The notes: generated by a model not told the origin, from the letters alone. DNA of 64,000 bases from Candidatus Saccharimonadales bacterium (GCA_041742395.1 JBGSIS010000028.1:31147-95146); one strand, 5' to 3'. Counted from the stretch's first letter, positions 1,552 to 64,000 are shown. Numbers and translations: made by a program.

Positions 1552-3162
1552 TTAGTCTTTTTTCAATAGCGACTTAACAAAACCTGTGAACATTGGATGC
1601 GCTTTATTGGGTCTAGATTTAAATTCTGGATGAAATTGACTTGCCATAAAGAAAGGATGGTCTTTGGCTTCTATTATCTCTACCAGATTACCGTCTGGGC
1701 TTGTTCCACTGGCAACAATACCCCATTTATCATATTTTTCTCGGTACTTATTACTACATTCAAAACGGTGACGATGTCTTTCGATTACTTTTGCCTTTCC
1801 GTAAACTTCACTAGCTAGACTGCCTTTTTGAATATTACAAGGATAATCACCTAATCTCATCGTACCGCCAGTATTCACCTTGTCTTCTTGTCCGGCCATA
1901 GTATTAATAACAAGCTGTCTTGATCCATCTTCAAGTTCTGGAGTGGAAGCAGTATCAACACCAGCATTCCTGGCAGCAGCAATAACAGCCATTTGAAGTC
2001 CAAGACAAAGACCCAAGTATGGAACTTTATTTTTTAAACAATACTGAGCCACTTTGATCTTACCTCTTAAAGCTCTTGAACCAAAGCCACCAGGTACAAC
2101 AATTCCATCACATTCCTTAATAATTTTTTCGACCTTATTATCATCTGAAGTGTCGAGTCCTTCAGCGTCAATCCACTTTATTTTTATAGTCACATCTTGC
2201 CACCAAGCAGCTGACTTGAGTGCTTCAAAAACTGACATATAGGTATCTTGATTATCCATATATTTAGCAACTACACCAATGACTACCTTTTTTTCATATC
2301 TTGCTGTGGCCCTGTCTACAACGCTTCGCCATTGTTTAAGATTTGGTTTTGAAGATTTTAACCCCATTTTTTCAACAATGACTTTAGATATCCCAGTATC
2401 TTCAAGAGTTAACGGAACTTCGTATATCGAAAAAGCATTAGGGAGTAATGAAATTGCTTCTGGAGCAACACCAGAAAACATACTTAATTTCTTAATCACA
2501 GTTTTAGGTGATTGTTCTTCGCTTCTAACTACCAGTACATCCGGAGAAATACCTATTCCTCTTAGGTCTCTGACGGCGTTCTGGGCCGGTTTTGTCTTAA
2601 ACTCCTGACTAGCACCTAAGTAAGGCATGTAAACAACATGAACAAAGACGCAGTTTTCTCTACCTACATTGAAAGCCAATTCTCTAATGGCTTCAATAAA
2701 ATTAAGTCCTTCATAATCACCTACAGTTCCACCAATTTCAACAATATGAACATCATAGCCTTTAGATACTCTAAGAATTTCTTCTTGAATTGCGCTAGTT
2801 ACGTGTGGAATAAACTGAACTGTTTTACCAGAATATTTACCTGATCTTTCGTCGTTGATAACTTTCGAAAGAACTCTTCCGCTCATTAAAGAACTTCCTT
2901 GAGTAAGTTCCTGATCTAAGAACCTTTCGTAATGCCCTAAATCTAAGTCGGTCTCTGCCCCGTCCTTTGTTACAAAACACTCCCCATGCTCTGCTGGATT
3001 AAGTAAACCAGCATCGACATTCAAATAGGGATCACATTTTTGTATGTTTACTTTTAGTCCGCGAGCTTTTAGTAGGTTTCCAATTGAGGCGGCAGTAATA
3101 CCCTTCCCTAGTCCGGAAAGCACTCCACCAGTTACAAAAACAAACTTAGTAGATTTTGCCAC
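1552..3162 (-). CDS. pyrG: CTP synthase
   Basis: 536 aa. N-terminal FVTGGVLSGLGKGI, C-terminal glutamine amidotransferase GLCLGLQ..HRHRFE. GTG start. Confidence 0.97.
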   Translation of the reverse strand: MAKSTKFVFVTGGVLSGLGKGITAASIGNLLKARGLKVNIQKCDPYLNVDAGLLNPAEHGECFVTKDGAETDLDLGHYERFLDQELTQGSSLMSGRVLSKVINDERSGKYSGKTVQFIPHVTSAIQEEILRVSKGYDVHIVEIGGTVGDYEGLNFIEAIRELAFNVGRENCVFVHVVYMPYLGASQEFKTKPAQNAVRDLRGIGISPDVLVVRSEEQSPKTVIKKLSMFSGVAPEAISLLPNAFSIYEVPLTLEDTGISKVIVEKMGLKSSKPNLKQWRSVVDRATARYEKKVVIGVVAKYMDNQDTYMSVFEALKSAAWWQDVTIKIKWIDAEGLDTSDDNKVEKIIKECDGIVVPGGFGSRALRGKIKVAQYCLKNKVPYLGLCLGLQMAVIAAARNAGVDTASTPELEDGSRQLVINTMAGQEDKVNTGGTMRLGDYPCNIQKGSLASEVYGKAKVIERHRHRFECSNKYREKYDKWGIVASGTSPDGNLVEIIEAKDHPFFMASQFHPEFKSRPNKAHPMFTGFVKSLLKKD

Positions 3163-3252: not shown

Positions 3253-4473
3253 CTACTGATTAATTATTGCTATAGCTGCGTCTTTTTGAGGATCTTTGTT
3301 ATTTTTATAATCTTCTTCAGAAAATTCTACTTTGCTATCTGGCTCTATTCCTTCTTTATTAATATTTACGCCATTTGGTGTAAACCATTTTGCGATCGTA
3401 ACTTTTAGCACTCCACCAGAACTAAGAGGAGTAACTTGTTGTACGCTACCTTTTCCAAAACTCTTAACACCAACTAATTTTGCAACTCCATTATCTTTAA
3501 GTGCACCGGCTGTTATTTCACTTGCACTTGCACTTCCTTCGTTAATCAAAACAACCGTGGGAACTCCGCCTAATATATCGCCACCGTCAGCTTTATAGGT
3601 TTTAATAGTTTCACTACCCCGCTTTTCTTCGAGCACTACTTTACCTTTGTCTAGCCATAAGCTGGAAATATCAACCGAAGAATCTAATAATCCACCTGGA
3701 TTATTTCTAAGATCAACTACCACACCTTTAACATTTTTGGATTTAAATTCTTGAGCAGCTTTCTTAGATAGCTCTATAGTATCGTCAGAGAATCTACTAA
3801 TCTTTAGGTAGCCAATGTTATCTTCAATAATTTTATACTCAACACTTGGAATTGATATTTGCTCTCTAGTTATATCGAAGTTCAATTCTTCTTTTCCATC
3901 CCTTACGACAGTGAGCTTAACCTTTGATCCTTCAGGACCTCGAATTTTAGTCACAGCGTCTGAAACCGATAAGTCTAGGGCGCTTTCATCATTTATTTTT
4001 ACTAAGACATCCTTAGCTCTTAACCCTGCTTTTTCGGCAGGAAATCCAGAAATAGGTGCAACAATTACTATAGCTTCGTCTTCCTCGCCTAATTCAGCAC
4101 CAATTCCACTAAATGAACCGTTTAGACTGCTCTCAAATTCTTCAGCTTCTTTAGTATTCAAATATTGTGTATATTCGTCGCCAGTTGACTCTACTAGTCC
4201 CTTTTTTATGCCGTCGATTACATCTTCTTCTTTAAGTTCACCGTCAAAATTAACTCTAAGGGTATCGTAAAGTGATTCGACAGTTTCGTAATTAAGATCT
4301 TCAGGTAATTGCTTATTAGAGCTTGTATTGGCTAGTTTTAAGCTTTCACCTACTGCTATTTTGCCATTACCTATATAGAGTCCAAAGATAAAAACTAAGC
4401 CAAAAGCAAAGGTTACAACGGCTACTTTAAGAGCACTTTTATTATTTTTTACTGTTTTAGATATTTTGTTCAC
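3253..4473 (-). CDS. S41 carboxy-terminal processing peptidase (CtpA/Prc-like), membrane anchored
   Basis: 406 aa. N-terminal TM helix, PDZ region, and S41 motifs RNNPGGLL, EGSASASE, FGKGSVQ. Confidence 0.9.
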   Translation of the reverse strand: MNKISKTVKNNKSALKVAVVTFAFGLVFIFGLYIGNGKIAVGESLKLANTSSNKQLPEDLNYETVESLYDTLRVNFDGELKEEDVIDGIKKGLVESTGDEYTQYLNTKEAEEFESSLNGSFSGIGAELGEEDEAIVIVAPISGFPAEKAGLRAKDVLVKINDESALDLSVSDAVTKIRGPEGSKVKLTVVRDGKEELNFDITREQISIPSVEYKIIEDNIGYLKISRFSDDTIELSKKAAQEFKSKNVKGVVVDLRNNPGGLLDSSVDISSLWLDKGKVVLEEKRGSETIKTYKADGGDILGGVPTVVLINEGSASASEITAGALKDNGVAKLVGVKSFGKGSVQQVTPLSSGGVLKVTIAKWFTPNGVNINKEGIEPDSKVEFSEEDYKNNKDPQKDAAIAIINQ

Positions 4474-4540
4474 ATTTCCTCCACGAAAAATTTCTATGAT
4501 TACAATAAAACATTATACTGAGAAAATACTGTAACTAAAA

Positions 4541-5752
4541 TTAGAAATGTATAAATACAAGTCCGGACTGACTAATAACTGCTTGTCGATAAAGTCCATC
4601 ACCCATACGATTATAATCACTAACTAGGACAGTTCCATCTGAATTAACTGCTTCGACATACATTACATGACCATAATAGCCATTAGGGTTAACTGCTGCA
4701 TCACCGACTCTTGCACCAGAACTATAAGAAACTGATGCACCTCTAGCCTCTGCGTTACCAGGCCAGTTCTTCGCATTACCTAGATATGTGAAACCTACTT
4801 TACCATCAGCTGCTAACTTATATGCAACCCAACTGGTACAGTTTCTAAATCCATATCCCCAACTATCCCAGGCAGAACCATTAAAGTACCAGTCGTAGTT
4901 AAAACAAGCTCCGTCAACGCTGTTAGTGTATACACAATAAGCGTTACCCCAAGGATATCCACCGCCCCCCGGAATCCCAGGCGAAACGTTATTTCCAAAA
5001 ATCCTCATATTCTCAACGATTTGCTGACGAACTAATTCATCAATTTTTGACTTATTTGCCTGAATATCATCGTTAACTTTGCTTTGCTCGGCTTGATTCA
5101 TCCCAAGCAATCTATTTTGCTCTCCTTGCTGAGATGCAATTTGATTCTTTAGTGACTCTTGTTCCCTAATAAGTTTTTCTACGTCTTCTTTTTGCTTACG
5201 AAGTAGAGACTTGAGTTCAGTAACTTTATCCAAACTTGATTTAATCTTAGTCTTTACCGCATTTCGGTACTGTTCTTTATCAACAAAATCACTTAAATCT
5301 TTACTGGAAGCTAACATTTCCAAAGTTGAGATGTCGCCTTCAAGGTACATGGCTTTAATATTTTCACCTAAAAGATTTTTCTGTTTATCTAACTCTTTTT
5401 GAGCTATTTCAATATCTTTAGCTAATTTAGCATTCTTCTCATTGTTAGTAGCAATTTGAGCTTGTAGTCCATTGATTTGCTGCTGAAGTTTATTAATTGT
5501 CTCTTGTATAGATCCTGCTTGAACTTGAAGAGTACCTACTTGCTCTTTCTTTTTATCATTCTCGTTTTTAAGTTGGTTAATTTGTTCCTGCAGATTATTT
5601 GCATTAACAAATACCGGAGAGATTGTGCCAATTAACAAAGCTACACTAAAAAACGCCGCGAACAAGAGAGTTGATGTTATTTTATTTTTTTTAGTGTATG
5701 TTTGTTTTATCATATACTCTTTGATACTAGCATAGTTTGGCATATTTTTCAA
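4541..5752 (-). CDS. coiled-coil + CHAP-domain peptidoglycan hydrolase (PcsB-like FtsEX partner)
   Basis: 403 aa. Signal/TM segment, about 200 aa of heptad-like Q/K/E-rich coiled coil, then C-terminal CHAP with Cys (FRNCTSWVAYKL) and His (GHVMYVEAV). Sits directly downstream of ftsEX. Confidence 0.8.
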   Translation of the reverse strand: MKNMPNYASIKEYMIKQTYTKKNKITSTLLFAAFFSVALLIGTISPVFVNANNLQEQINQLKNENDKKKEQVGTLQVQAGSIQETINKLQQQINGLQAQIATNNEKNAKLAKDIEIAQKELDKQKNLLGENIKAMYLEGDISTLEMLASSKDLSDFVDKEQYRNAVKTKIKSSLDKVTELKSLLRKQKEDVEKLIREQESLKNQIASQQGEQNRLLGMNQAEQSKVNDDIQANKSKIDELVRQQIVENMRIFGNNVSPGIPGGGGYPWGNAYCVYTNSVDGACFNYDWYFNGSAWDSWGYGFRNCTSWVAYKLAADGKVGFTYLGNAKNWPGNAEARGASVSYSSGARVGDAAVNPNGYYGHVMYVEAVNSDGTVLVSDYNRMGDGLYRQAVISQSGLVFIHF

Positions 5753-17916: not shown

Positions 17917-18867
17917 TTATTTAGCAAGAAAGCCGACAATCAGAACAACTGCGAATAGAGTCCTTAGCACTAAGCTATTAACAGCATACTTCTTTTCTAC
18001 TTGCTCATAGTCAGACAAGTTTCCCTTTTTCTTAAGAGATGCTAATTGTAGTTTGCCTAATAGTCCTGCACCTGCAAGCATCACTACATATAGAACATAT
18101 ACATACCAAGGACTTCTTAACTCACCGAATACGTAGGTGAAAACTGCATATGAAAGAATAACTAGCCAAGGTAGTAGTCCTGAAAGCATTCCTAAATAAT
18201 ATTCTCTTATTGCGGGAGTTCCCTCTTTAACTGTCCTCTTTTCAGCAAACCATCCTGCAAGCATAGTAATCACCATAAGACCGCCAATTAATTTCAAAGT
18301 TCCTAAATCTAAAACTCCACTTAATATCGCAATTGTTTCGATCATAATCGCCCCGACAATTGCCATATCAATCCAGCGAGTAGTCATAATTCTATCTTTT
18401 AATTGTTTTGTATGACTTAATTTTAATCTTGTCAAATATAAGACTGGAACGATTACAGAAATCAAAGCAACAGCCATTACTAACCACTTTGCTTCTATGT
18501 CTACAATACCTTGTGTTGCTGGTGCAAATTGCGTACCGTTCACGCTTTTAAGCTCATCCTTACCCCAGTAACCAACACTTATCTGGAAACTCAAGCTATT
18601 CATTAGGAAAAATGCCGCAGCGGCAAGAGCCAAGTAAACAGCTATGCTGCCTGCATAAATTCTCTGTAATGGTGACATCTTTGCAAAAGCGGTCTTCTTT
18701 TCTTCCTTTTTAACGCTTTCGACTTTTACTGATTTTACTGCTGGTTTTTTAGTAACTTTAGTACTCGTACTTTTCTTAGAAGTTTTTGCACTTTTTGCTT
18801 TAGTTACTGCCTGTGATTTATTTGTTGTTTTAGTTTTTGCCTTGGTTGATTTAGTAGATTTAGCCAT
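17917..18867 (-). CDS. heliorhodopsin-like 7-TM protein with Lys-rich N-terminal tail; predicted Schiff-base Lys replaced by Arg
   Basis: 316 aa. About 60 aa of K/T/S/A-rich tail, then 7 hydrophobic helices. Blocks RWIDMAIVG, AGWFAEKRT, GMLSGLLPWLVILSY and EKKYAVNSLVLRTLFA match my recollection of heliorhodopsin 48C12 (RWVEYSLSS, FGWLQEKYT, GCIAGIVPWIGLLIY, ERAYIVLSLVAKSALAW). Confidence 0.6.
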   Translation of the reverse strand: MAKSTKSTKAKTKTTNKSQAVTKAKSAKTSKKSTSTKVTKKPAVKSVKVESVKKEEKKTAFAKMSPLQRIYAGSIAVYLALAAAAFFLMNSLSFQISVGYWGKDELKSVNGTQFAPATQGIVDIEAKWLVMAVALISVIVPVLYLTRLKLSHTKQLKDRIMTTRWIDMAIVGAIMIETIAILSGVLDLGTLKLIGGLMVITMLAGWFAEKRTVKEGTPAIREYYLGMLSGLLPWLVILSYAVFTYVFGELRSPWYVYVLYVVMLAGAGLLGKLQLASLKKKGNLSDYEQVEKKYAVNSLVLRTLFAVVLIVGFLAK

Positions 18868-38691: not shown

Positions 38692-38725
38692 CTTTGATCC
38701 ACAAAAAAACAAGCAAATTACCCCC

Positions 38726-38739
38726 TTGGTGGTTTATTA
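38726..38739 (+). repeat. 14-nt direct repeat TTGGTGGTTTATTA, copy 1 (upstream of rpmE)
   Basis: Exact match to 39217-39230. Part of a hairpin, GGTGGTTT (38728-38735) with AAACCACC (38755-38762). Confidence 0.8.
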
Positions 38740-38791
38740 CCTCACTGAATAACAAAAACCACCCAAAAGTCTAGCTATCTATGCCAAACTA

Positions 38792-52348: not shown

Positions 52349-52577
52349 TTACCTTACTCTTTTTGTTTTTTATTTTGGTTTTAGCGTTTTAACCTACGCC
52401 TTAGTTCAATCGCCTGATCTGAGTTTTTGTTTCTAGTTTTTGTTTTTACAGATCAATAACAGTTTAGCTAATTTTCACTACTTATGTAAAGAAGTTTTAT
52501 ATCTGTTGATGTGGATAACTTTACAATAGAGATAGAATGTTATAAAGTACTATAATACTAGCATCTTAATACTAGTA

Positions 52578-53672: not shown

Positions 53673-56600
53673 CTATGGTAGAGGACATTGCGCGTCATTA
53701 GATTGACGACAAGGAGTATCCAGTGGTTGTTTTTCGCCGCCCGTGAATGTCTTTCCGTGCCTCAATCTCTTTGATGGATCTGACGTAAAGAACAGAGACA
53801 AATCGGTAATTGTTGGTCCTCTTGCGGTGTCTTCTGGGTAGCCAAAAGTTTTAGATGCATCGATACTAACATAGAAGTAGTAGTACCTGGCACAATCTAT
53901 GTCAGTACCACTGCCATCTTTTGGAGTGTACGTTGCCACGTCTCCAAGTGTTACATCTCCATAATCTGTTTCTTGCCCCCATGTTGACATATCTGCACTA
54001 CCACAATCAGTAGGCACACCGTCAATGTCGTTCATTGATCTATATTTAACTTGCCACCTAGCACCGATCGAGTTATCGACACCATTCATTAACCACGAGT
54101 TTGGAAATACATCACTATCTGTATCTATCATTCTAGAATAAATAGCTACTTGTGGTTGCGACTTAACGGTCGAGTAATAATGCTTATTAGTGCTCAATAC
54201 CGAGCTACAACCTCCTCCCATTAAGTACATTTTTCCATTAGAGTATGCCAGAGCGGCACCATACCTATCTCCTGTATACCTGGTGTTTGTTTCATACCAC
54301 TCACCAGTACCAGTAGGGTTATTACCAGTAGCTATTGTTGTATTGGCGCTTATCGGCGTTATCAAAGTATTTGGTAAACAAGTGGTTGAAGCGGAACGCC
54401 CGCCAACCAAGTAAATATACCCATTGGCAGAAACGGCATCAGCATCTCTTATTGGCCCAGGTAAACTATTAGAGTATGACCAAGAACCTACGGAACCATC
54501 CTGAATGGTATAAATTGTGCCAGAATTAACTGTTTTACTTACATCTACAGTAATCGATGTTGTACTACCAAAGGCTGTGACAGTCGCCTTCGACCCGTCA
54601 GGATACTGAATGGTGCTGCCCACCATTGTTGAGGCAAAAGTAGTCCCCGAACCAGTAACGGTGCTCCCAGATTGTGAAATTGTTCCAGTCTTATAACCTA
54701 GCGAAGCAAACTGACTATCACTCAGGTAGTTCGAGCCATCGAAACCTCCAAACAGATAAAGATTATTGGCGTAGGCCGTAACTGCCGGACCTTGTCTTGC
54801 GACATTAAATGCCGTAGACGAACTCCATGTTCCAGACATATTACCACCAGAGCTCATCTTTGGGCTTACATAAACAACTGAAGAAACAGCGGCACTATCA
54901 TCGATTCCACCAACTATGTAAATTCTATTGTCCCAAACAGTTCCGCCTGAATAGGCCCTATCACCAGGCAATGTCGATGAAGCGGCTGTCCATGAACTTA
55001 CGTTACCTGAAAGTAAAGTACCATAGTAAATATCATTTTTTTCGTCTCCAGTACTATCTATACCTCCAATATAATATAGAGTTGTGTTCGTATCACCCGC
55101 AACCTCTAGCTGACCAAAAGCTCTTTGTCCTGGCATAGTTGAATCCGTAGTATTGTTCCAGGTTCCGACAGTACCATCCGAAGAACTCAACTGGGCAAAC
55201 TGAGTGTTGTCTGTTACTGTGCTACAGCTTATATCAGTACAGCCCCCCGCAACATATAGATATCCATCATGAACTGCAGCACTTGCACCAATTCTGTCTG
55301 TTGAAGTCGCATAATCTTGGTCGCTTTGAGCAGTATAGTCGTTAATAGCTCCGCTGTCGTTATTATATAGCTGGAAAGTTTGAATAGCGGGCTCAAAACT
55401 ACTACAACTATTAGGACTGTACCCTACATCACAACCCCCAATTACGTATGCATAAGAGTTAGAAACCACCACGCTTAATCCCCATCTTTGGTTAATCTGA
55501 ATACTGGAAGTAATGAAGGGATCTACACTTCCATCGCTAACATTCATTTTTGACCATTCAATAAATGGAATAACTTGAGAGGTGGTTGCATCAAAGCCAC
55601 CCAATGAGTAAATATGACCATTATATCCAAAGCTAAATCCTCTTCTTCTTCCGACATTTAACTTGTTGGGTGATTCTGTCCAGTCACTTCCTGATACCGC
55701 TACAATATTGTTACTATTGTTAATTTCGGCATATAAAACATCATCTTTGTCAGCTTCTGCAGCACTAAAACCACCAATTAGATATACGTAGTTTGCATAA
55801 ACTGTACCGGAATGAAGCCCCAATCCATCGGTTCCCCCAGTACCTGGAGTAGAGTCAATCTGTAGCTGACTTGATGTACTACAGCCAGACACACTTCCAG
55901 TTGTTGTTATGTTGCATTTATATACCTCTGTTTCGTAGTCATTACTACATGACGGTCCTGTGCCCATAGTTCCGCATCCACCAAAAATAAATAAGTTGCC
56001 TGGATTTGAACCAGCAAATAAAGGATTAGCTCTGGCGTATGCGAATGTATACGAAATATCTTCTGCAACACCGGCAGTAGTTAAGTCAACGGCAGTCCAT
56101 GCACCACCCAGACTTCCGTTAGTATTCGTAGTATTATAGTATATCTCGCCAGTCATACCACCCGTGCTATCAAATCCACCTACAAGGTATATTCTGTTAT
56201 TAAATACAGTAACGCCAGAAGCAGCAATTCCGTCAGCTCCATTTATAGTATTCGTACTATCAACACACCAAGAACCATAACTTGTACCAGAACAAGTAGA
56301 TGGCTTAGAAAGAGAACCGTCTGAGTTAATTGATACAAATGCGGTATTACTTGACACATTTTCAGAAGTTGGAGTATTTGTACCGCTATTACAGTTGTAT
56401 TCTGTGCAACCGCCAAAAACGTAAAGATAGCCGTTTAAGATTGTTGATGCGTTAAGCATATGCCCTATTTCACCGGCACCATCACCTGGGCACGCATCTG
56501 GATCGCAATCAGTATCCGAATCATCTCCTGGTAAACTACAGTTCGTAGGACTTCCACCCGTACAAGTACCAGAACCATTTCCGCTAGAAATGTTAACTGT

Positions 56601-59600
56601 AGATACTTCTCCTGCCGGGTTTATAACACCGTAGTCAACATCTGCCAATGTCGACAAACACTTTCCATTGGAACTATCTTGTTCAGTACATCCACCGATT
56701 CTATATAAACCATTTTGCCAACCAATCAAGGTATAGCCAAACCTGGTATTTGTTAAGTTATTTATTGAACCCCACGCCGAAATAGATCCATCCGCATTTA
56801 TACTTGCTATTTGAGTGTCACTTCCCACTGTCGTGCAATACCCACTTCCATTTACAGCAGTACAACCACCACTCAAATAAATGTAGGCTCCCCAAACGGT
56901 AGTGTAGCTACCTCCCCATGTACTTCTTCCAGTTGAAAAACTAGACGTAGTAACCCAGCTGTTCATTGTTCCATTTGCATTTAGTTTTGAATAGGCTACT
57001 GCATTCTGAAGCGTTCCACTACTATTACCACCAATTAAGTAAATAGTGTCATTGTATACATGCATAGTATGACCATGTCTAGCCGATGGCAAGGCAGTGC
57101 CAGATGTCCAAGTTCCCAACGTACCGTTAGGGCGAATTTCCGCATACTCGGCAGTGTTAGTTCCTCCAGTACTTGCGTCGGTCTGACCTCCCAAAAGATA
57201 TAATCTATTATTGTATGCAGCTGCCGAAAAGTAACTTCTCGCCGTAGAGCTGCTAAGACCTGTGTCCTCATACCAATAATCCCAATTATCGGGGTCAGTA
57301 TCAGTTGGATGCCAAAGCTGAGGCTCACCATTTGCACCAATTTTTGCAATATAAACAGTAGATACCCTATTACCGCTACCGTCAACTCCTCCCAGTACAT
57401 AGATGTAGCCGTTGTAAGTAATCATAGTGTGTCCTCTTCTGGCAGATGGTAAGTTATATGTTGTTTCTGTACACCAGCCATCACAAGCTCCTTCACCAGG
57501 ATTTGGACTTTCGATTTCTAGAGTATCTGAATTAAACTTTGCCCACTCTAAACTAGAAACTGCACTTTCAGGAGCGGTGGTGGTAGCGGCATTTATAGCA
57601 ACGGAAAATGCTCCATAGGTATCACTCATTTCTCCTAAGTTAACAGCAGCGGTGGCGATTCCTGCAGCAGGAGAGTTATTTAAACTGGCAGCCGTAAATC
57701 CGCAGTCATTAGTTCCAGCCGAAGTCCTTGAATCAAGTTTAGTATGATTAGCCGGTAACCAGCCTGTTGCAGTAGGAACGTCATCATCAATACCGTTTGA
57801 CCTAATAATCAACGTTTTGTTTTCATCTGGAGTTACTGCAGGATAGGTCGGGGTAGCATTACTTGCACTACTGGCAGTTCCAACAGTTCCAGCTATAGGA
57901 TCTGCTGAGTCAAAACCAGTAACCCTGACAATTGCTCCTGCAAAAGTTTCAGTTCCACTAGCCAAGTTCCAGGTGTAATTTGCGGCTTCGTTTCCGCCAC
58001 TAACGTCAGTGCCTACTTTATAATAAGCTGCAAACTCTCTAAGATCCGCCAGCTCTGTCCAGCCACCACCTCCCGGGGGGTTTACTCTGACGTCACCATC
58101 ATGGCACATCATTGCAATATATAAATCACCTGCGGGTCTACTAGTTGGCATAGTCATCTGAAATGAACTGCCGTCAGAACCGTCACTTGTACCTTGAATA
58201 TCCTGTACTTCTGGAGCAGGTGTAGTTCCGTCTGGGTTAATTGCTATAGAGCTAGCACCGTAACTATCGAATAGTGTAGTGTCACCTAATGTAGTAGTTC
58301 CACTAGCAACACCAGTTGCCGGTGGAGTATCAAGCGATGCGGCAGCAAACCCACAGTCGTTAGTACCACCGCTATTACCAGAAGATATCTTTGTGTGACC
58401 GCTTGGGACCCAAGCTGTATCACTAGGCACATCTTCATCTACACCTGCAGATCTAATTACTAATGTTGCTGAGCTGTCTGGAGTAGTAGTTGGGAAAATA
58501 GGCACAGCATTACTAGCATTACTACCTGTACCAGCGGTACCACTTACAGGATCAGCGCTATCAAATCCTGTAACCCTAACAATTACACCAAACCATTTTT
58601 CACTACCACCTGTCCATGTATAGTTAGCCGATTCATTTCCTCCACCAGAATCTGTACCGATTTTATAATAGGCTGCGTGTTCTCTTGTATCAGCATACTC
58701 TGTCCAACCTGATGGAGGGGTTATAGCTCCTGTTCCATCGTGACACATAAGTGCTACATAAAGATCTCCAGCTGGCCTTGTTGTTGGCATGGTCATCTGG
58801 AACGAGGTGTTGTCTGTCGCTAATGCAGTTTCTTGCTGATCTACAATTTGTGGCTTAGAAAGGCCAGTTCGGCCACCTGATCTATATACATATCCCCCCG
58901 CTGCAGCAGTACTCTGATCCCAAATACCGTCGTTCATGTCTAAGTTTCCCTGCCAAGCGTCGATACGCGCGCCAGTAGTTTGACTCTTCTGAATTAGCTC
59001 ATCATCAATATCAAAATCAGTATTTGTTTCGTTATTTCCCCTCATCAACTTAGCTGCTGTTTCTACATAAACAGTAGGGTCGATACTTATTGGATAGTTC
59101 AATTCCTTGAGTTTTTCGGCTCTTAAAGTTAACTTTTTGCCTTCAAGCAAAAATTTAGCTGTAGAAATAATATTTTTGTTACCAGATTCTTTTATGTATG
59201 GTGGTGGCATTCTAAAAATTAGCTTATTCTTGTTTGAGTTTTTACGTGCATCACTTAGTAACTGAGCATCCTTTTCGTTTCCTGTGGAGACCTTGCCAAG
59301 TAAAGTGGAGTTTTCTGGACCATATATTGCAAGCGACCCATCACCTTCAAGTCTAGCCTCGAGACTTTCCGGCATCTCCAATTCATATTCAAAATCTAAG
59401 CTATCTTTATAATATTGTTCCAAAATAATATCTTCCTTGAAACCAATTGACCTTAGCGAAACAACTTTAGCACCATTCTTTCCAGCTAGTGGATAAACAA
59501 GTCGATTATCGTCTTTAACTGGCTGCTTCATCTTGAATTTTGGTTTTACTTTTAATGCAACATTATAGGTAGGATCAATTAGCTCAACTCCTTCACTTGG

Positions 59601-60173
59601 ATTAGCCATAAAAGTAGCTGAAAATTTAGGACCGTAAGTTTGTCCAGCAACATCTCCAGAGACAGGATTATAATCTTTATTATAGTTAAAACTATTACTT
59701 GAATTATCAAAATTTAGCTTGGTACTTAGAAGTGGATTCTTATCAATAATTAATGCTTCTGCCTTGGGAGAAACCTTATACTGTAGTGATTTAAAATGCT
59801 CTTCAAATGTCGTAAACAAAATAAACAGAGTCATTACAAGTACAACAATAATGGTAAAAAACCTTGTAAAAACCCGATGTCTCTGACAAAAAAACATTAT
59901 TTTTTGGATAAACTTTGGAGGACGCCACATGAAGACACCCTTGTCATTTATAATCATTTTTCTAACTTTTGAGAGTTTTTGTCGTTTTTTGAATAACTTT
60001 TTCTTCTTGGGTACTTTTTTCGGATGCTTAGGTTCTGGAGTTATTGAACTAGACGGCTGATTATGACTAGCTATATTTTGTTGTTGGCCATTAGATGAAT
60101 TGACAGATTGAAAAGGCCGGACATCGCGACGAACATAACCATTATTTTGCTGTGAATTTCTATTTCTTTCCAT
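53673..60173 (-). CDS. giant membrane-anchored surface protein with many Kelch-like beta-propeller blades and a duplicated unknown module
   Basis: 2166 aa. Basic cytoplasmic N-terminus, TM segment FTIIVVLVMTLFILFTTF, then recurring Kelch-type strings (RRGHTMITYNGYIYVLGG, ARHGHTMHVYNDTIYLIGG, AAAYNNRLYLLGG, AVHDGYLYVAGG...). Confidence 0.75.
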   Translation of the reverse strand: MERNRNSQQNNGYVRRDVRPFQSVNSSNGQQQNIASHNQPSSSITPEPKHPKKVPKKKKLFKKRQKLSKVRKMIINDKGVFMWRPPKFIQKIMFFCQRHRVFTRFFTIIVVLVMTLFILFTTFEEHFKSLQYKVSPKAEALIIDKNPLLSTKLNFDNSSNSFNYNKDYNPVSGDVAGQTYGPKFSATFMANPSEGVELIDPTYNVALKVKPKFKMKQPVKDDNRLVYPLAGKNGAKVVSLRSIGFKEDIILEQYYKDSLDFEYELEMPESLEARLEGDGSLAIYGPENSTLLGKVSTGNEKDAQLLSDARKNSNKNKLIFRMPPPYIKESGNKNIISTAKFLLEGKKLTLRAEKLKELNYPISIDPTVYVETAAKLMRGNNETNTDFDIDDELIQKSQTTGARIDAWQGNLDMNDGIWDQSTAAAGGYVYRSGGRTGLSKPQIVDQQETALATDNTSFQMTMPTTRPAGDLYVALMCHDGTGAITPPSGWTEYADTREHAAYYKIGTDSGGGNESANYTWTGGSEKWFGVIVRVTGFDSADPVSGTAGTGSNASNAVPIFPTTTPDSSATLVIRSAGVDEDVPSDTAWVPSGHTKISSGNSGGTNDCGFAAASLDTPPATGVASGTTTLGDTTLFDSYGASSIAINPDGTTPAPEVQDIQGTSDGSDGSSFQMTMPTSRPAGDLYIAMMCHDGDVRVNPPGGGGWTELADLREFAAYYKVGTDVSGGNEAANYTWNLASGTETFAGAIVRVTGFDSADPIAGTVGTASSASNATPTYPAVTPDENKTLIIRSNGIDDDVPTATGWLPANHTKLDSRTSAGTNDCGFTAASLNNSPAAGIATAAVNLGEMSDTYGAFSVAINAATTTAPESAVSSLEWAKFNSDTLEIESPNPGEGACDGWCTETTYNLPSARRGHTMITYNGYIYVLGGVDGSGNRVSTVYIAKIGANGEPQLWHPTDTDPDNWDYWYEDTGLSSSTARSYFSAAAYNNRLYLLGGQTDASTGGTNTAEYAEIRPNGTLGTWTSGTALPSARHGHTMHVYNDTIYLIGGNSSGTLQNAVAYSKLNANGTMNSWVTTSSFSTGRSTWGGSYTTVWGAYIYLSGGCTAVNGSGYCTTVGSDTQIASINADGSISAWGSINNLTNTRFGYTLIGWQNGLYRIGGCTEQDSSNGKCLSTLADVDYGVINPAGEVSTVNISSGNGSGTCTGGSPTNCSLPGDDSDTDCDPDACPGDGAGEIGHMLNASTILNGYLYVFGGCTEYNCNSGTNTPTSENVSSNTAFVSINSDGSLSKPSTCSGTSYGSWCVDSTNTINGADGIAASGVTVFNNRIYLVGGFDSTGGMTGEIYYNTTNTNGSLGGAWTAVDLTTAGVAEDISYTFAYARANPLFAGSNPGNLFIFGGCGTMGTGPSCSNDYETEVYKCNITTTGSVSGCSTSSQLQIDSTPGTGGTDGLGLHSGTVYANYVYLIGGFSAAEADKDDVLYAEINNSNNIVAVSGSDWTESPNKLNVGRRRGFSFGYNGHIYSLGGFDATTSQVIPFIEWSKMNVSDGSVDPFITSSIQINQRWGLSVVVSNSYAYVIGGCDVGYSPNSCSSFEPAIQTFQLYNNDSGAINDYTAQSDQDYATSTDRIGASAAVHDGYLYVAGGCTDISCSTVTDNTQFAQLSSSDGTVGTWNNTTDSTMPGQRAFGQLEVAGDTNTTLYYIGGIDSTGDEKNDIYYGTLLSGNVSSWTAASSTLPGDRAYSGGTVWDNRIYIVGGIDDSAAVSSVVYVSPKMSSGGNMSGTWSSSTAFNVARQGPAVTAYANNLYLFGGFDGSNYLSDSQFASLGYKTGTISQSGSTVTGSGTTFASTMVGSTIQYPDGSKATVTAFGSTTSITVDVSKTVNSGTIYTIQDGSVGSWSYSNSLPGPIRDADAVSANGYIYLVGGRSASTTCLPNTLITPISANTTIATGNNPTGTGEWYETNTRYTGDRYGAALAYSNGKMYLMGGGCSSVLSTNKHYYSTVKSQPQVAIYSRMIDTDSDVFPNSWLMNGVDNSIGARWQVKYRSMNDIDGVPTDCGSADMSTWGQETDYGDVTLGDVATYTPKDGSGTDIDCARYYYFYVSIDASKTFGYPEDTARGPTITDLSLFFTSDPSKRLRHGKTFTGGEKQPLDTPCRQSNDAQCPLP
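57560..58850 (-). repeat. internal tandem duplication of an about 213-aa module of unknown fold inside the 2166-aa protein
   Basis: SFQMTMPTTRPAGDLYVALMCHDG... begins at 58805, and SFQMTMPTSRPAGDLYIAMMCHDG... begins at 58166 (period 639 nt). The two copies are collinear through NDCGF(A/T)AASL and YGA(S/F)S(I/V)AIN. Confidence 0.8.
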
Positions 60174-60288
60174 ACCCTCTTAATGAACAAAGTTCTATAG
60201 CTTAATAATAACTCTTTTTAATCTGTTAGTCCATATTTTTATAATACTAATATGCGAAAGTTAGTAGATGTAACAAAATATACAATTT

Positions 60289-60325
60289 AAAAAGAATCCT
60301 CCCTGCACTTAATCAGAGAGGATTC
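60289..60325 (-). terminator. strong rho-independent terminator
   Basis: Minus RNA reads GAAUCCUCUCUG-AUUAAGUG-CAGGGAGGAUUC, a 12-bp stem with one G-U pair, followed by UUUUU (60293-60289). Confidence 0.65.
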
Positions 60326-60333
60326 TAAAATTT

Positions 60334-60393
60334 GGGAAATTTTGTTTTGTTGTTTTTGTTTGGAAATTTGTTTTTGGATTGTTTTTGTTTTTG
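60334..60393 (-). repeat. CAAAAAC / GGAAAUUU-type short repeat tract (plus strand GTTTTTG)
   Basis: Plus strand reads gggaaattttgttttgttgtttttgtttggaaatttgtttttggattgtttttgtttttg. Similar GTTTTTGTTT strings occur at 52362-52372 and 52420-52450. Confidence 0.7.
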
Positions 60394-60524
60394 TAAACGG
60401 GTATTACCGACCAGAGCCTTGTATATTTGCGAGCCCGTTTCTTGGGTATAAGAAACTAAACCTCATACAAGGATGGTAACCAATTTATTGACCGCGACCC
60501 CCGTTTAAGGTATTCCGCGGCCAA
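60394..60524 (-). ncRNA. candidate structured RNA element (3' UTR element, leader or small RNA) of unknown class
   Basis: Nested and alternative helices read directly: 60488-60496 with 60516-60524 (9 bp); 60425-60432 with 60473-60480 (8 bp) enclosing 60445-60451 with 60458-60464 (7 bp); 60394-60401 can pair with 60500-60507 or with 60442-60449. GC-richer than the flanks by eye. Confidence 0.35.
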
Positions 60525-60654
60525 GTCGACTGCAGAGGCAATTCATAATACTTTTCTCCTTTCATTTTTACTAATGTTTCGGTAATTAACAAACTGAATC
60601 TTCAACTGGACTGGCGGTTGGTATGTTAGTGGTAATGTCATCTGGTTTTTCATT

Positions 60655-63600
60655 TTATTGTCCATTCGTAGTGAAGCTTAGGGTTGATACATAGGCATTG
60701 GCATTACTATTAGCCTTCATATTTATCTTGAATATTACGAAGTTACTTGCCGAGCTACTCGTAAAGCTACAGCCAGTTGCTTCATTTCCATTTATTCCAT
60801 ATGTATGCCATTGGTCTGCTGTGTCGCCACCGCCAGCAATAACATCTGTTTCACCAGATCCACACTGCGTTACCGCCGATCCGGTACTCTTGAACATTTC
60901 GTAAGTCACTTCTGCATTACTAGTACTATCTACTCTTCCAGTTAGCTGAACAGTATCGTCACTAGCAAATCCTCGGAAGGTAGCAGGTAACTGATATGTT
61001 ACATAAATACTGTAAGTCTGTTGTGAAGCCTGAGGCGAAGTCCATTTATAGTAGTTCTTTGCCTGACCTGTTTCACATAACGCCGCATTAACTGTTAGTG
61101 CAGCATCGTCTGAACAGAAGTCAGCGGTCATTGTTCCAACCCCAGTACCGTTTAGTACTGCACCTGCATACTCTGGATTAAGGTTTACGATGTTATCAGG
61201 AGCAGCACCACAAGCACCCCAACCGTCAGCTTCGTAACACTGAATTCTTCCTGTTACTGTGTCGTAATACATTGAGCCTAGGTATGCATCGTTATTTTCG
61301 CCAACTGGTGCACTAGCGCCACGATCTAGAGTAAACAATGTGGTTGGACCACCCTTGTTTGCTCCACCTACTTGCACATTGTTGGCAGTGTTTTGGTTCA
61401 AAGTAATCGATAATGCATCAATGTAGAATGTTCTGTCCGAAGCTGTGGGCTGATCAATAACAAGATTTGCATCTGTTACAGCAGTCACACCTGTAGTAAA
61501 TAGACATGTTATTTCAGTCCAAGTAGATGTAGAAACATTTTGAGTATTATAGTCAGTACAAGAAACGTAGTTTGATCCATTATCTGGAGTATATCTAACT
61601 CTAATATCGTTAAATGTATTTGTACTTCTTGCATAGAAAGTCACTAAATACTGAGTGTTAGTGGATGGATTAATAGATAGATTATTAATTACACCCCTGT
61701 CTACTGCGTTAGGTGTATTTACGGCAACGCTTCCGCTAGTATCATAAATTGTTGTAGTGTCTCTAGTTAATCCGTCTAGAGCTCCGAAAGCTGTCCATGT
61801 AGATGCGCTCAACGCACTGTCAACACTTCCATCAGAAGCATGATTAATATCAGCGCTCACTTGAACACTTAGGTTATCTACGTAGAATGTTCTAGATGTA
61901 GCATCAGTCTGTCTAATAAATATTGCGTTACTAGATGTAATTCCACTGCTTGGTGCAGTAAAGGTACAGATTATTCTACTCCACTTACCTGTAGTTACAG
62001 TTTGTGTTGAGGCACAAGCGGTCGTACTTGTGTTAGTACCATCCCTAGAATAGACAACTTCTAGAGTTGAGAAATTGGTAGTTCCACGGACCGCAAAAGA
62101 TACAGAGTACTTAAGGTTTGCAGTTAGTGAAGTTGAGAGAGTGTTTCTAACACCGTGATTAATTGCGGTAGTTGCAACGGATGTAGAAGCAGTACCTGTA
62201 GCTATGTAGTTACCTGCGGTTGTGTACCTTGAAACAGATCCTCCAGCAGGTGCAGCAGTCCACATTGTAAATGTACTTGTTTCGGCACCACCATTGTTTG
62301 CGTATTCAGTTGCATTGTTGTTTACACTAAATAGGTTGGAGCCGATTGATGTCTGGACTTCCAAAAGCGCACCCGTAATTGGAGTGGTAGAGTTGTTTCT
62401 TATAGTCAAACCATCGGCTGCACCACCGGCTGCGTTTAGTACCAACTCGGCACCACCAGCACTTGTCAAAGTGTTATTGTAAGCGGCCTGAAGGTCAGTT
62501 GAGCTAGATGCTCCAGCTGCTGTCCAGTCAGAACCACTCCAGATCAATGTTGCAGTAGTATTTGCCCTCATAGCAATACTGTTACCAGTGGTAGTGTTGC
62601 AAGTTCCATCATATGAAGCATTGACAAGTACATCGTTCAAACAAAGGGTGAAGTCACTTGTTGAACTTGCAGCAGTAACGTAGACAATCTTTCCTGCGGT
62701 AACATTGGTAGGGTCCGGAATGGCCGCTTCGTAACCTGTAGAGGAGAATGTCATGATAACAGCACTCTTACTATCTACATTTGCCTGAGTAATTGTACAG
62801 TCTGCGGCACCACAGCTTTGGCTTGTTGCAGTTCCATAAGTAACGGAATTTTCAAAATATGCTGCTCCGGCTGCACTTAGATTACCCTGAACCATAACCG
62901 TGCTTCCAAAATAAGACTGTTGTGCAACCTCTAGCGAACCAATAATACTAGTATTTCCAGCTCTCAAAGTTCCAGCACCACCAGCACTTGTACCTAGAGA
63001 CGTCTGAGCATCAAGTCCAGCAGTCAGATCAAGTCCACCATTAACTCTAATTCCAGGAATTTCTGTGTAAATTACATTGGTAGCTGATGAATCACCCGTA
63101 GTCGTATTCCACTGTGTAGGATATTCCGATCCACCAAATCTATATACATATCCGTTGTACAACGCACCTGAAGCACCAAAAGCATTAGCCCGATTATTTG
63201 GGTGATTACCGTATGTTGGCAAATCACCACCAGTTAGATATGTAGCGCTTCCAGCAACTGGAACTCCACTACTGTTAATATCAATTACTTGGGTCTGTGA
63301 TGGTACAGTCATGGCACTATTATTTGTTGCAGCGCTCCCCCAGTCACCTCCACCATAAACATGCAACTTGCCGTTAACCGCTTCAACGGTATGTCCAATT
63401 CTTCCATTAAATCCACCAGTAGTTGCATCAACACTAACTTCCGAAAATGTGCCAATAGTACCGTCACCGTTAATAGTAGCGTACTGCACTTCATCGTGAT
63501 CAAATACGGAATATCCAGGATTTTCTAAATCATCAAAAGTACCCCAAACTACATATACCCTACCATTCATAATTACCGAGTCATGCATTAATCTATTTGA

Positions 63601-64000
63601 TGCCAAGGTACTAGTTGTTGCCCAGTTTCCTTCAGGAATTTTTCCGTCTGGTCCAGGTTTTGCATAGTACACAGTTTGAGCACCGTTGGCATTACCCGCA
63701 GTTGAACCGCCGATAATATACAAGTAACCGTTGTAAGTTTCTGCAGAGTGATAAATTCTAGCTATTGCTGAAGCTGTATTAGCGATTGGTGTTGTAGTGT
63801 TCCAACTGCCTAATGTTCCGTCATTGTTTACTTTAGCAAAGTACACAGTTGAGTTAGCATTTCCAGAAACATAAGCATGAACTCCTGTTGCCTTGTTTGC
63901 AGAAGCTCCACCAACAACATATATATAACCGTTTATATATGTTGCGGTATGACCAGTTCTTGCGGCAGGTAAATTACAGTTATAGGGATTAGAGCCTGTA
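60655..64000 (-). CDS. giant surface protein with Kelch-like blades and two CBM-like (carbohydrate-binding-module-like) domains; 5' end beyond window
   Basis: The frame stays open from 63846 to 64000 (own translation ..LPAARTGHTATYINGYIYVVGGASANKATGVHAYVSGNANSTVYFAKVN..), so the track's GTG start is internal. Kelch strings (YHSAETYNGYLYIIGG, GHTVEAVNGKLHVYGG). Two about 150-aa modules end in TFYVDNLSVQV and TFYIDALSITL. Confidence 0.75.
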   Translation of the reverse strand, partial: TGSNPYNCNLPAARTGHTATYINGYIYVVGGASANKATGVHAYVSGNANSTVYFAKVNNDGTLGSWNTTTPIANTASAIARIYHSAETYNGYLYIIGGSTAGNANGAQTVYYAKPGPDGKIPEGNWATTSTLASNRLMHDSVIMNGRVYVVWGTFDDLENPGYSVFDHDEVQYATINGDGTIGTFSEVSVDATTGGFNGRIGHTVEAVNGKLHVYGGGDWGSAATNNSAMTVPSQTQVIDINSSGVPVAGSATYLTGGDLPTYGNHPNNRANAFGASGALYNGYVYRFGGSEYPTQWNTTTGDSSATNVIYTEIPGIRVNGGLDLTAGLDAQTSLGTSAGGAGTLRAGNTSIIGSLEVAQQSYFGSTVMVQGNLSAAGAAYFENSVTYGTATSQSCGAADCTITQANVDSKSAVIMTFSSTGYEAAIPDPTNVTAGKIVYVTAASSTSDFTLCLNDVLVNASYDGTCNTTTGNSIAMRANTTATLIWSGSDWTAAGASSSTDLQAAYNNTLTSAGGAELVLNAAGGAADGLTIRNNSTTPITGALLEVQTSIGSNLFSVNNNATEYANNGGAETSTFTMWTAAPAGGSVSRYTTAGNYIATGTASTSVATTAINHGVRNTLSTSLTANLKYSVSFAVRGTTNFSTLEVVYSRDGTNTSTTACASTQTVTTGKWSRIICTFTAPSSGITSSNAIFIRQTDATSRTFYVDNLSVQVSADINHASDGSVDSALSASTWTAFGALDGLTRDTTTIYDTSGSVAVNTPNAVDRGVINNLSINPSTNTQYLVTFYARSTNTFNDIRVRYTPDNGSNYVSCTDYNTQNVSTSTWTEITCLFTTGVTAVTDANLVIDQPTASDRTFYIDALSITLNQNTANNVQVGGANKGGPTTLFTLDRGASAPVGENNDAYLGSMYYDTVTGRIQCYEADGWGACGAAPDNIVNLNPEYAGAVLNGTGVGTMTADFCSDDAALTVNAALCETGQAKNYYKWTSPQASQQTYSIYVTYQLPATFRGFASDDTVQLTGRVDSTSNAEVTYEMFKSTGSAVTQCGSGETDVIAGGGDTADQWHTYGINGNEATGCSFTSSSASNFVIFKINMKANSNANAYVSTLSFTTNGQ

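Follow-up and report, generated by a model that had tools for sequence, protein, structure and literature searches.

The described systems that come closest to the element discussed here are intrinsic terminators set in structured bacterial 3' untranslated regions (3' UTRs), small regulatory RNAs (sRNAs) that derive from 3' UTRs or are of the Gram-positive LhrC/RsaE type, the CrcZ/CrcY sponge RNAs, REP/BIME/BOX repeats, and leader-peptide attenuators with their ribosome-arrest peptides. Here we examine a 64,000-nt stretch of DNA from a Candidatus Saccharimonadales bacterium (GCA_041742395.1 JBGSIS010000028.1:31147-95146; the whole stretch is called the window), with a focus on an intergenic element at 60289-60560 that lies between two giant genes on the minus strand. 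An earlier note, made from the sequence alone, had offered three identities for this element: a 3' UTR of about 365 nt, an independent small RNA, or a leader-peptide attenuator. We somewhat favour the first—positions 60289-60560 would be the distal two thirds of an untranslated spacer, or 3' UTR, of ~365 nt with its terminator, and a degenerate copy of a lineage-specific module.

An intrinsic terminator in a structured bacterial 3' UTR shares with this element a G+C-rich 13-bp hairpin with a U-tract, downstream of a stop codon and on the same strand, together with upstream hairpins that could guard the 3' end; what sets the element apart is the length of the spacer (~365 nt), the A/C-only linkers that part its hairpins, and its occurrence at one junction in one candidate phylum. 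Resemblance to the LhrC/RsaE-type sRNAs of Gram-positives, with their C-rich (UCCC) seeds, and to 3'-UTR-derived sRNAs lies in an unpaired UUUCC(C) tract before the terminator; sub-threshold Rfam matches are LhrC-like and terminator-driven, at 17.8 bits against a gathering score of 110. Unlike these sRNAs, the element has no visible promoter, and its processing and targets would be putative.

The CrcZ/CrcY sponge RNAs, and the (AAN)n/ARN sites bound by Hfq, have C-punctuated A-rich repeats (AAAAAC read as AAA-AAC) in unpaired sequence between hairpins, as does the spacer; they differ from it in motif spacing and sequence, the spacer has no visible promoter of its own, and we know of no Hfq or Crc partner in the Saccharibacteria lineage. 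REP/BIME/BOX repeats likewise form stable hairpin arrays downstream of genes, and a Y1 transposase gene lies at one related junction (L004); in contrast to such repeats, the element is single-copy and its hairpins differ between loci, with no common consensus. Leader-peptide attenuators and ribosome-arrest peptides such as TnaC, SecM and the RAPP/RAGP family (compared here with PMC10987492 and PMC10951233) also place a short proline-ending open reading frame (ORF) on a hairpin, and relatives of our locus add invariant C-termini and, in one subtype, the RAGP motif. These systems differ from the element in their position—it follows a gene, and is not the 5' leader of a secretion-machinery gene—and in that the window's peptide is unconserved and no antiterminator was found.

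The probable 3' end of a giant gene

The element belongs to a 481-nt gap between an upstream giant surface-protein gene, which continues past the window end at 64000, and a 2166-aa giant protein gene with Kelch repeats; the gap holds all the features that had been described. A terminator had been proposed at the far end of the element, and our scan of 59900-61000 bears this out: a 13-bp stem (60326-60293) with six G-C pairs and an 8-nt loop runs into UUUUU, and it is the sole terminator-like site in that interval, with no earlier one between the giant-gene stop and this position. The sequence hallmarks of an intrinsic terminator are all present: past the end of a gene, and on its sense strand, a G+C-rich stem-loop leads straight into a U-tract. 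In 11 of the 20 related spacers scanned a terminator occupies the equivalent position, which supports termination indirectly. The signature is strong, and transcription probably stops there.

A promoter-like site lies downstream of the terminator and upstream of the Kelch gene, which would place the element upstream of the Kelch promoter rather than in its leader. Relatives have a comparable TGnTAnAAT box, followed by CACTAGGG, immediately 5' of the Kelch gene, whether or not they carry the spacer element, and in them too the box comes after the terminator. With no earlier terminator, an intrinsic terminator at its end and a promoter-like site beyond it, the spacer is best fitted by a 3' UTR of ~365 nt. 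Its main job would then be to form the 3' end of the upstream giant-gene transcript: transcription would stop at the terminator, the hairpins would shield the 3' end from exonucleases, and the A/C tract, which does not pair, may insulate the terminator so that it can fold, or may be where a single-stranded-RNA-binding protein lands.

The same features bear on the leader-peptide attenuator, which we consider unlikely. Its 13-codon ORF is unconserved, the promoter-like site of the Kelch gene lies past the terminator, and no credible antiterminator was found; when the 3' arm of the terminator was blocked in constrained folding, its 5' arm paired with 60596-60612 in a weak, interrupted helix, and the total energy went from -77.3 to -61.8 kcal/mol, an ensemble loss of 15.5 kcal/mol.

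Between the giant-gene stop and the terminator the spacer is predicted to fold into several hairpins (Table 1). The first strong one 3' of the giant gene, which we call P1, had been described as a 9-bp hairpin; in the RNAfold structure its stem has 10 bp (60524-60515 with 60497-60488), and the micro-ORF stop codon does lie in its loop of 17 nt. The helices reported further downstream are also present, at positions 8 nt lower than those given: an outer 8-bp helix pairs CCUUGUAU (60472-60465) with AUACAAGG (60424-60417), and an inner 7-bp hairpin pairs 60456-60450 with 60443-60437. Both lie in a central domain closed by an ACCA/UGGU helix, whose likeness to two related loci (L050 and L009) is limited to the short blocks GUUUAGYUU and CGGUAAU. 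The proposal that a 3' segment could pair with either of two upstream copies was placed correctly for CCCGUUUA (60401-60394) and UAAACGGG (60507-60500), while GAAACGGG is at 60441-60434 and not at 60449-60442. Perfect 8-bp complementarities number four against 0.63 expected from mononucleotide shuffles (p ~0.02), a count that includes an unseparated share from the terminator and P1; the mutually exclusive pairing itself found no independent support.

The whole 286-nt element has a folding z of -3.28; the core at 60395-60530, taken without the terminator and the A/C tract, has z = -1.53, and 9 of 200 shuffles were as stable, so that its helices are no stabler than shuffled controls. The opposite strand of the core scores similarly (z = -1.69). 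As for composition, the element is richer in G+C than the flanking AT-rich promoter region (0.37-0.41 against 0.26-0.29), as had been noted, but not richer than coding DNA.

The statement that no known RNA class matches was upheld: Rfam 15 gave no match at gathering score in the whole window or in 17 related loci, and at E <= 10 the matches were terminator-driven, at 12-20 bits; a known RNA family was dropped on these grounds. Nor were tRNA or tmRNA genes found. No second copy of the element occurs in the 64 kb, and each related locus has one P1; a REP/MITE-type repeat was dropped, as no extra copies appeared in the 64 kb of genome and the related loci examined. A template repeat of a diversity-generating retroelement, an ops/RfaH-like element, a tracrRNA or omega-RNA, and a frameshift stimulator were set aside because the partners or features that they need are not visible in the sequences read.

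Table 1. Features of the giant-gene spacer and its flanks, in window coordinates.
Feature	Position	Strand	Basis or remark
Stop codon (TAA) of upstream giant gene	60655..60657	-	Gene continues past window end
36-codon ORF	60543..60653	-	Position of relatives' coupled small ORFs; no detectable homology to them
Shine-Dalgarno-like AAAGGAG	60556..60562	-	9 nt 5' of micro-ORF ATG
13-codon micro-ORF, MNCLCSRLGRGIP-TAA	60505..60546	-	Unconserved in related loci
Hairpin P1	60488..60524	-	RNAfold; positional analogue of relatives' P1
Variable central hairpin domain	60410..60477	-	RNAfold; with P1, not better than shuffles
A/C-only, G-free tract	60340..60394	-	Composition; box AAAAACAAAAAC
Intrinsic terminator (predicted)	60289..60326	-	Stem, loop, U-tract; dG -19.8 kcal/mol
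Promoter-like site of Kelch gene	60205..60233	-	TGGACT, 17 nt, TATTAT
2166-aa Kelch giant gene	53673..60173	-	Protein features

Related junctions and the A/C tract

About 55 loci were gathered by way of the Kelch N-terminus, the conserved C-terminal 400 aa of the upstream protein, and look-ups of its closest homologues by exact protein. Over those 400 aa the upstream giant protein is 68-81% identical to proteins of Saccharibacteria metagenomes, and for both flanking giant proteins the homologues carry the annotation Candidatus Saccharibacteria or Patescibacteria; the downstream protein combines a basic N-terminus, a predicted membrane anchor and Kelch repeats. About 20 of the related loci have a spacer at the same junction, from a CBM/beta-helix giant gene to a Kelch giant gene, and the gene order of the window recurs in L002, L003, L050 and L057. 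The recurrent layout runs from the giant-gene stop through an ATGAAA, a first hairpin, further hairpins with CAAAAAC-type linkers, a terminal hairpin and a -10-like box to the Kelch gene; an ATGAAA start 2-14 nt past the giant-gene stop is near-universal.

The junction occurs in four states. In the first there is no spacer and the Kelch ATGAAA follows the stop by 1-4 nt (L005, L006, L042), which makes the spacer an optional insert between otherwise coupled genes. The second has a short spacer of 50-100 nt with the -10-like box alone (L018, L052, L053). The third has a long spacer of 300-700 nt, with ATGAAA, a GC-rich hairpin, hairpins and A/C linkers, usually a terminator, and the TGnTAnAAT box; examples are the window itself, L003, L010, L007-L009, L011, L012, L014-L016, L019, L034, L050 and L057. 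The fourth is made of small-ORF spacers: an ORF1 with ...TRAGP... and a 40-aa basic ORF2 in L002, L040, L041 and L043, a single ORF2-like ORF in L021, L030 and L038, and a small ORF in the same position in L039.

The outcomes that the earlier note had named as refuting its element are largely what we found for the window copy: alignable conservation is missing even at 80% flanking-protein identity, and the core helices are no stabler than shuffles. Among loci whose flanking protein is 73-81% identical to that of the window, L018, L052 and L053 lack the element, L050 has an HSFGG-type element (discussed below) and L051 another A/C-rich version; neither of the latter two can be aligned, even though the flanking protein of L050 is 80% identical. 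MAFFT and blastn comparisons of the window with L050, L009, L003 and L010 align only the A/C box and a few short blocks, and when L050, L007 and L003 were compared with the window by blastn, matches arose in the A/C tract alone (E = 6e-4 to 1e-2). Among the collected loci, no relative closer than ~80% flanking-protein identity has an alignable spacer. Since the alignments cover just the low-complexity A/C tract, homology between the window and its relatives is claimed from synteny and architecture. The spacer evolves far faster than its flanks, which is not the behaviour of an RNA held to one particular structure. The features that last are generic ones, namely hairpins of high stability, A/C linkers that do not pair, and a terminator. 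By architecture, the window's spacer belongs to a "giant-gene spacer" class that is defined here and not curated, its sequence homology to the other members being borderline.

The A/C repeat tract had been recognised correctly: it is at least 90% A+C and free of G, and no other intergenic stretch of 40 nt or longer in the 64 kb reaches 90% A+C, a notable property given that the minus strand has fewer Cs here than any other base. Within it, the box AAAAACAAAAAC occupies 60392-60381 and a UUUCC motif 60366-60362; a UUUCCC follows at 60339-60334, just 3' of the tract and before the terminator. The window has exactly two copies of the 12-mer AAAAACAAAAAC, this one and one at 52447-52436, each of them intergenic, on the sense strand and beside a giant gene. 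The second copy lies upstream of a 1542-aa giant gene (region 52349-52577, minus strand), in the loop of a GAUCUG...CAGAUC hairpin, and further A/C-rich sequence there reaches the Shine-Dalgarno sequence and ATG. In relatives, the box takes the form A4-6CA4-6C on the sense strand of the spacers, with one antisense exception in 312 kb; it is limited to the spacers plus the 5' region of the window's third giant gene.

A strand-specific box that recurs in otherwise unalignable spacers, unpaired and directly 5' of a terminator hairpin as is typical of sRNAs, would suit a spacer that is, or yields, a functional non-coding RNA. Such a 3'-UTR-derived or independent sRNA would act through its single-stranded A/C tract, either as an (AAN)n protein platform like the sites for the distal face of Hfq and the "CA motifs" of CrcZ, or through UUUCC(C) seeds for Shine-Dalgarno regions. 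The window has two UUUCC(C) motifs, which L003 and L010 match with CUUUCCC or CCUUUCC, conserved blocks with covarying stems are found in L050 and L009, and RNAduplex of the A/C tract against 43 start regions gave one outlier at -22.8 kcal/mol (mean -8.0, sd 3.2), for the gene ending at 38755. Against an sRNA stand the lack of a promoter scoring at least 9/12 before the element, the lack of an Rfam relative, a window copy that is unconserved even in close relatives, three of which have no element, and the lack of Hfq or another candidate partner among the annotated window genes; the duplex outlier, moreover, is low-complexity G/U-rich sequence. We regard both forms of the sRNA as unlikely.

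The strongest predicted partner of the A/C tract in that duplex search is a G/U-rich stretch at 38695-38760 (minus strand), upstream of a 701-aa AAA_5-domain gene; the duplex is probably a low-complexity coincidence.

The same tract could instead be a Rho-utilisation (rut) site that backs the intrinsic terminator once ribosomes have left the giant mRNA. Rut sites are conserved in composition and not in sequence; such a site would be C-rich, G-poor and unstructured over at least ~70 nt, and the primary site of Rho prefers YC dinucleotides. The tract lies between the end of translation and the hairpin, is unstructured and free of G for at least 55 nt, and holds ~24% C against a background of 16%, with a C about every 6 nt; its Cs mostly stand in AC rather than YC. 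The same box also lies near the start codon of the 1542-aa gene, a place at which ending transcription would do harm, the annotated window genes include no rho, and an intrinsic terminator, predicted to be efficient, follows anyway. A rut site is highly unlikely.

Several related junctions carry further insertions or repeats. In L007, a terminator hairpin (AGCGCCC...GGGCGCU followed by UUUU) occurs twice, at 2800-2822 and 3135-3157, 335 nt apart, as if a piece of the spacer had been duplicated locally. Immediately past the giant gene, L004 has an IS200-like Y1 transposase gene (3938-4603; PF01797, E = 4e-8) preceded by a perfect hairpin, and L026 and L027 have a similar-looking ORF with a preceding hairpin at ~3850-4500, a likeness judged by appearance; with these insertions, the junction may be an insertion hotspot. 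In L056, the giant-gene homologue is followed by a gene for a 112-aa PF05635 (23S_rRNA_IVP) protein at 2373-2711, a family to which the Avd accessory proteins of diversity-generating retroelements belong. Short tandem repeats, of 5-7 nt (GGTGACA, CGTATTT, CAGTCAC, GGGGTTA, GGGAGAA) lie past the giant-gene stop at L013:4187-4287, L008:1840-1880, L019:3905-3935, L038:2500-2530 and L056:2290-2315.

The gene content of the window is of a housekeeping kind, with SecA, SerS, LysS, PyrG, RF1/RF2, RRF, EF-Ts, S2, GreA and an LCP transferase. The minus strand also encodes, at 17917-18867, a protein of 316 aa from the heliorhodopsin family (PF18761, E = 1e-27).

Small ORFs and the first hairpin

The micro-ORF of the earlier note reads as described, from a Shine-Dalgarno-like sequence through ATG 60546 to TAA 60507-60505, and two more small ORFs overlap it in the remaining two frames. 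One, of 36 aa (MKNQMTLPL...ERRKVL), starts at ATG 60653, 2 nt past the giant-gene stop, and its TGA (60545-60543) overlaps the micro-ORF ATG as ATGA. The other, of 26 aa, runs from ATG 60565 to TAA 60487-60485, covers the whole of P1, and uses the AAAGGAG as its codons 2-4; it is the positional counterpart of an HSFGGLSPP ORF in relatives and reads MKGEKYYELPLQSTWPRNTLNGGRGQ.

The 13-codon peptide has no counterpart in any related locus examined and no Pfam match, the 36-codon ORF has no Pfam match either, and the motif ...ILLxHSFGGLSPP... is encoded by none of the three ORFs in any frame. An hmmsearch of the window's small ORFs with a profile of the ORF2-like family gave a best E of 0.15, for the 36-codon ORF, which is not significant; together with the Pfam result, this led us to drop the idea that they are relics of the conserved 40-aa ORF2-like protein. 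The micro-peptide ends in GRGIP-stop, without a C-terminal arrest motif of the RAGP/RAPP/RGPP type, and Pro-stop is not enriched across the spacers as a whole (5.7% of stops against a CCN frequency of 4.8%). The three overlapping ORFs, the 13-codon one included, are most likely relics or chance.

The relatives present a different picture. The HSFGG subtype (L007, L008, L009, L011, L012, L014, L015/L016, L019, L050 and L057; for example L050:3594-3648) has its first hairpin within a coding ORF, which begins 2-8 nt past the giant-gene stop; in L008, L015 and L016 the codons are kept in the absence of an in-frame ATG ORF from the giant-gene stop. The N-terminus of this micro-ORF varies in sequence and in length (~20 to 85 aa), and the C-terminus is invariant, (N)IIL(F/L)xHSFGGLSPP. 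When the nine distinct sequences were aligned, the 10-bp stem was paired in every cell; four stem pairs have double-sided changes, which fall in every third column and join third codon positions to third codon positions, while the non-third positions are invariant. Of the 191 pairwise codon differences in the HSFGGLSPP frame, whose nine third positions all vary, 183 are synonymous, against 14/206 and 10/208 in the other two frames. Because the third positions change synonymously while the base pairs are kept, peptide and hairpin are jointly selected in these relatives.

A profile search added 17 called micro-proteins (P0142-P0158) of 33-100 aa, with unrelated N-termini and an invariant C-terminal HSFGGLSPP motif plus 2-9 residues; one of them (L057) stands in the same giant-to-giant context. 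By analogy, the layout of the HSFGG micro-ORF is that of a candidate ribosome-arrest or leader peptide—published arrest peptides have an invariant C-terminal motif behind variable N-termini (PMC10987492). A covariance model (R1) built from the relatives' P1 and its 5' flank recognises 11 loci, at 53-70 bits. At 60488-60524 it finds nothing, its best matches in the window lie elsewhere with E > 1, and it also misses L003, L010 and the RAGP subtype. Judged by its sequence, the window has lost the HSFGGLSPP micro-ORF.

The RAGP subtype (L002:7258-7545, L040, L041, L043) has two small ORFs that overlap as ATGA. Its ORF1 reads ...(I/V)PPP...S(T/A)RAGP..., in which RAGP, found in these four loci alone, is the arrest core of SecM; its ORF2 encodes a strongly conserved 40-aa basic peptide, MKKERKKQDDRVLKRLPQNERRKQLRLRRQIQNDPLFSLA. 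The single related ORF of L021, L030 and L038 ends in ...I.ND.F... We found no paper that connects arrest peptides to Saccharibacteria, nor one that connects this group to non-coding RNAs in the intergenic regions of giant Kelch genes.

These ORFs raise the question of a translation-sensing switch, the counterpart of the leader-peptide proposal in the earlier note. In such a switch, a short ORF coupled to the giant gene, ending in RGIP-stop in the window and carrying HSFGGLSPP or RAGP in relatives, would place a slow ribosome at P1 and shift the folding downstream, and so alter how the 3' end forms, how stable the mRNA is, or whether transcription reads through into the Kelch gene. The synonymous differences and the ten conserved base pairs, with compensation from third position to third position only, show that the relatives' P1 is threaded by a real coding ORF; the 17 further micro-proteins repeat the pattern of published arrest peptides, a second subtype has the SecM core (...TRAGP...) at the same place, and the window's own micro-ORF combines a Shine-Dalgarno sequence with a course over the 5' arm of P1 and a Pro-stop in its loop. 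The window itself fits this switch poorly: it lacks the HSFGGLSPP ORF, the covariance model misses its hairpin, its 13-codon peptide is unique, no credible antiterminator rivals the terminator, the Kelch gene has its own promoter-like site past the terminator, and Pro-stop is unenriched; stalling of any of these peptides is putative. We think both the switch and its proposed outcomes rather improbable for this locus.

A broader version would treat all the spacers as an undescribed class of translation-coupled regulatory modules, built on a re-initiated, proline-ending and stalling-prone peptide whose codons form the hairpin, with the window version diverged but working. A ribosome on the hairpin would then set the fate of the A/C-linker and hairpin RNA, and through it the 3' end, mRNA stability or the next giant gene. 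This class, and the mechanism attached to it, are speculative, and we hold each to be quite improbable.

Weighing the 3' UTR and the meaning of the junction

Several observations weigh against a plain 3' UTR with a terminator. A transcript end at 60289 and a promoter at 60233-60205 are both predicted from sequence. The L050 and L009 spacers share long identical blocks broken by covarying stems, and this subtype looks like a functional RNA; the persistence of a strand-specific box and a hairpin-linker design in lineages that cannot be aligned points to selection beyond a plain terminator. A good Shine-Dalgarno sequence, ideally spaced, precedes the window's micro-ORF, which also overlaps the ORF before it as ATGA, and the chance of an ATG so preceded in the spacer is 0.1-0.15 by a rough back-of-envelope estimate made without a tool. 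The first ORFs of several relatives likewise end in Pro-stop beside a hairpin at this place.

With these points in view, we still lean towards the 3' UTR with its terminator, and the window element should be annotated as such rather than as a riboswitch, an attenuator or a small-protein gene. Giant surface proteins of Saccharibacteria are thought to mediate attachment to host bacteria, and to our knowledge RNA-level regulation has hardly been described for Saccharibacteria or for other members of the candidate phyla radiation. The giant-gene junction is a recurrent, extremely fast-evolving non-coding module with a strand-specific A/C box, and in many relatives it also carries a micro-ORF selected at once for its peptide and its base pairs. 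The junction thus offers a testable entry point to the termination, stabilisation or co-regulation of very long genes.

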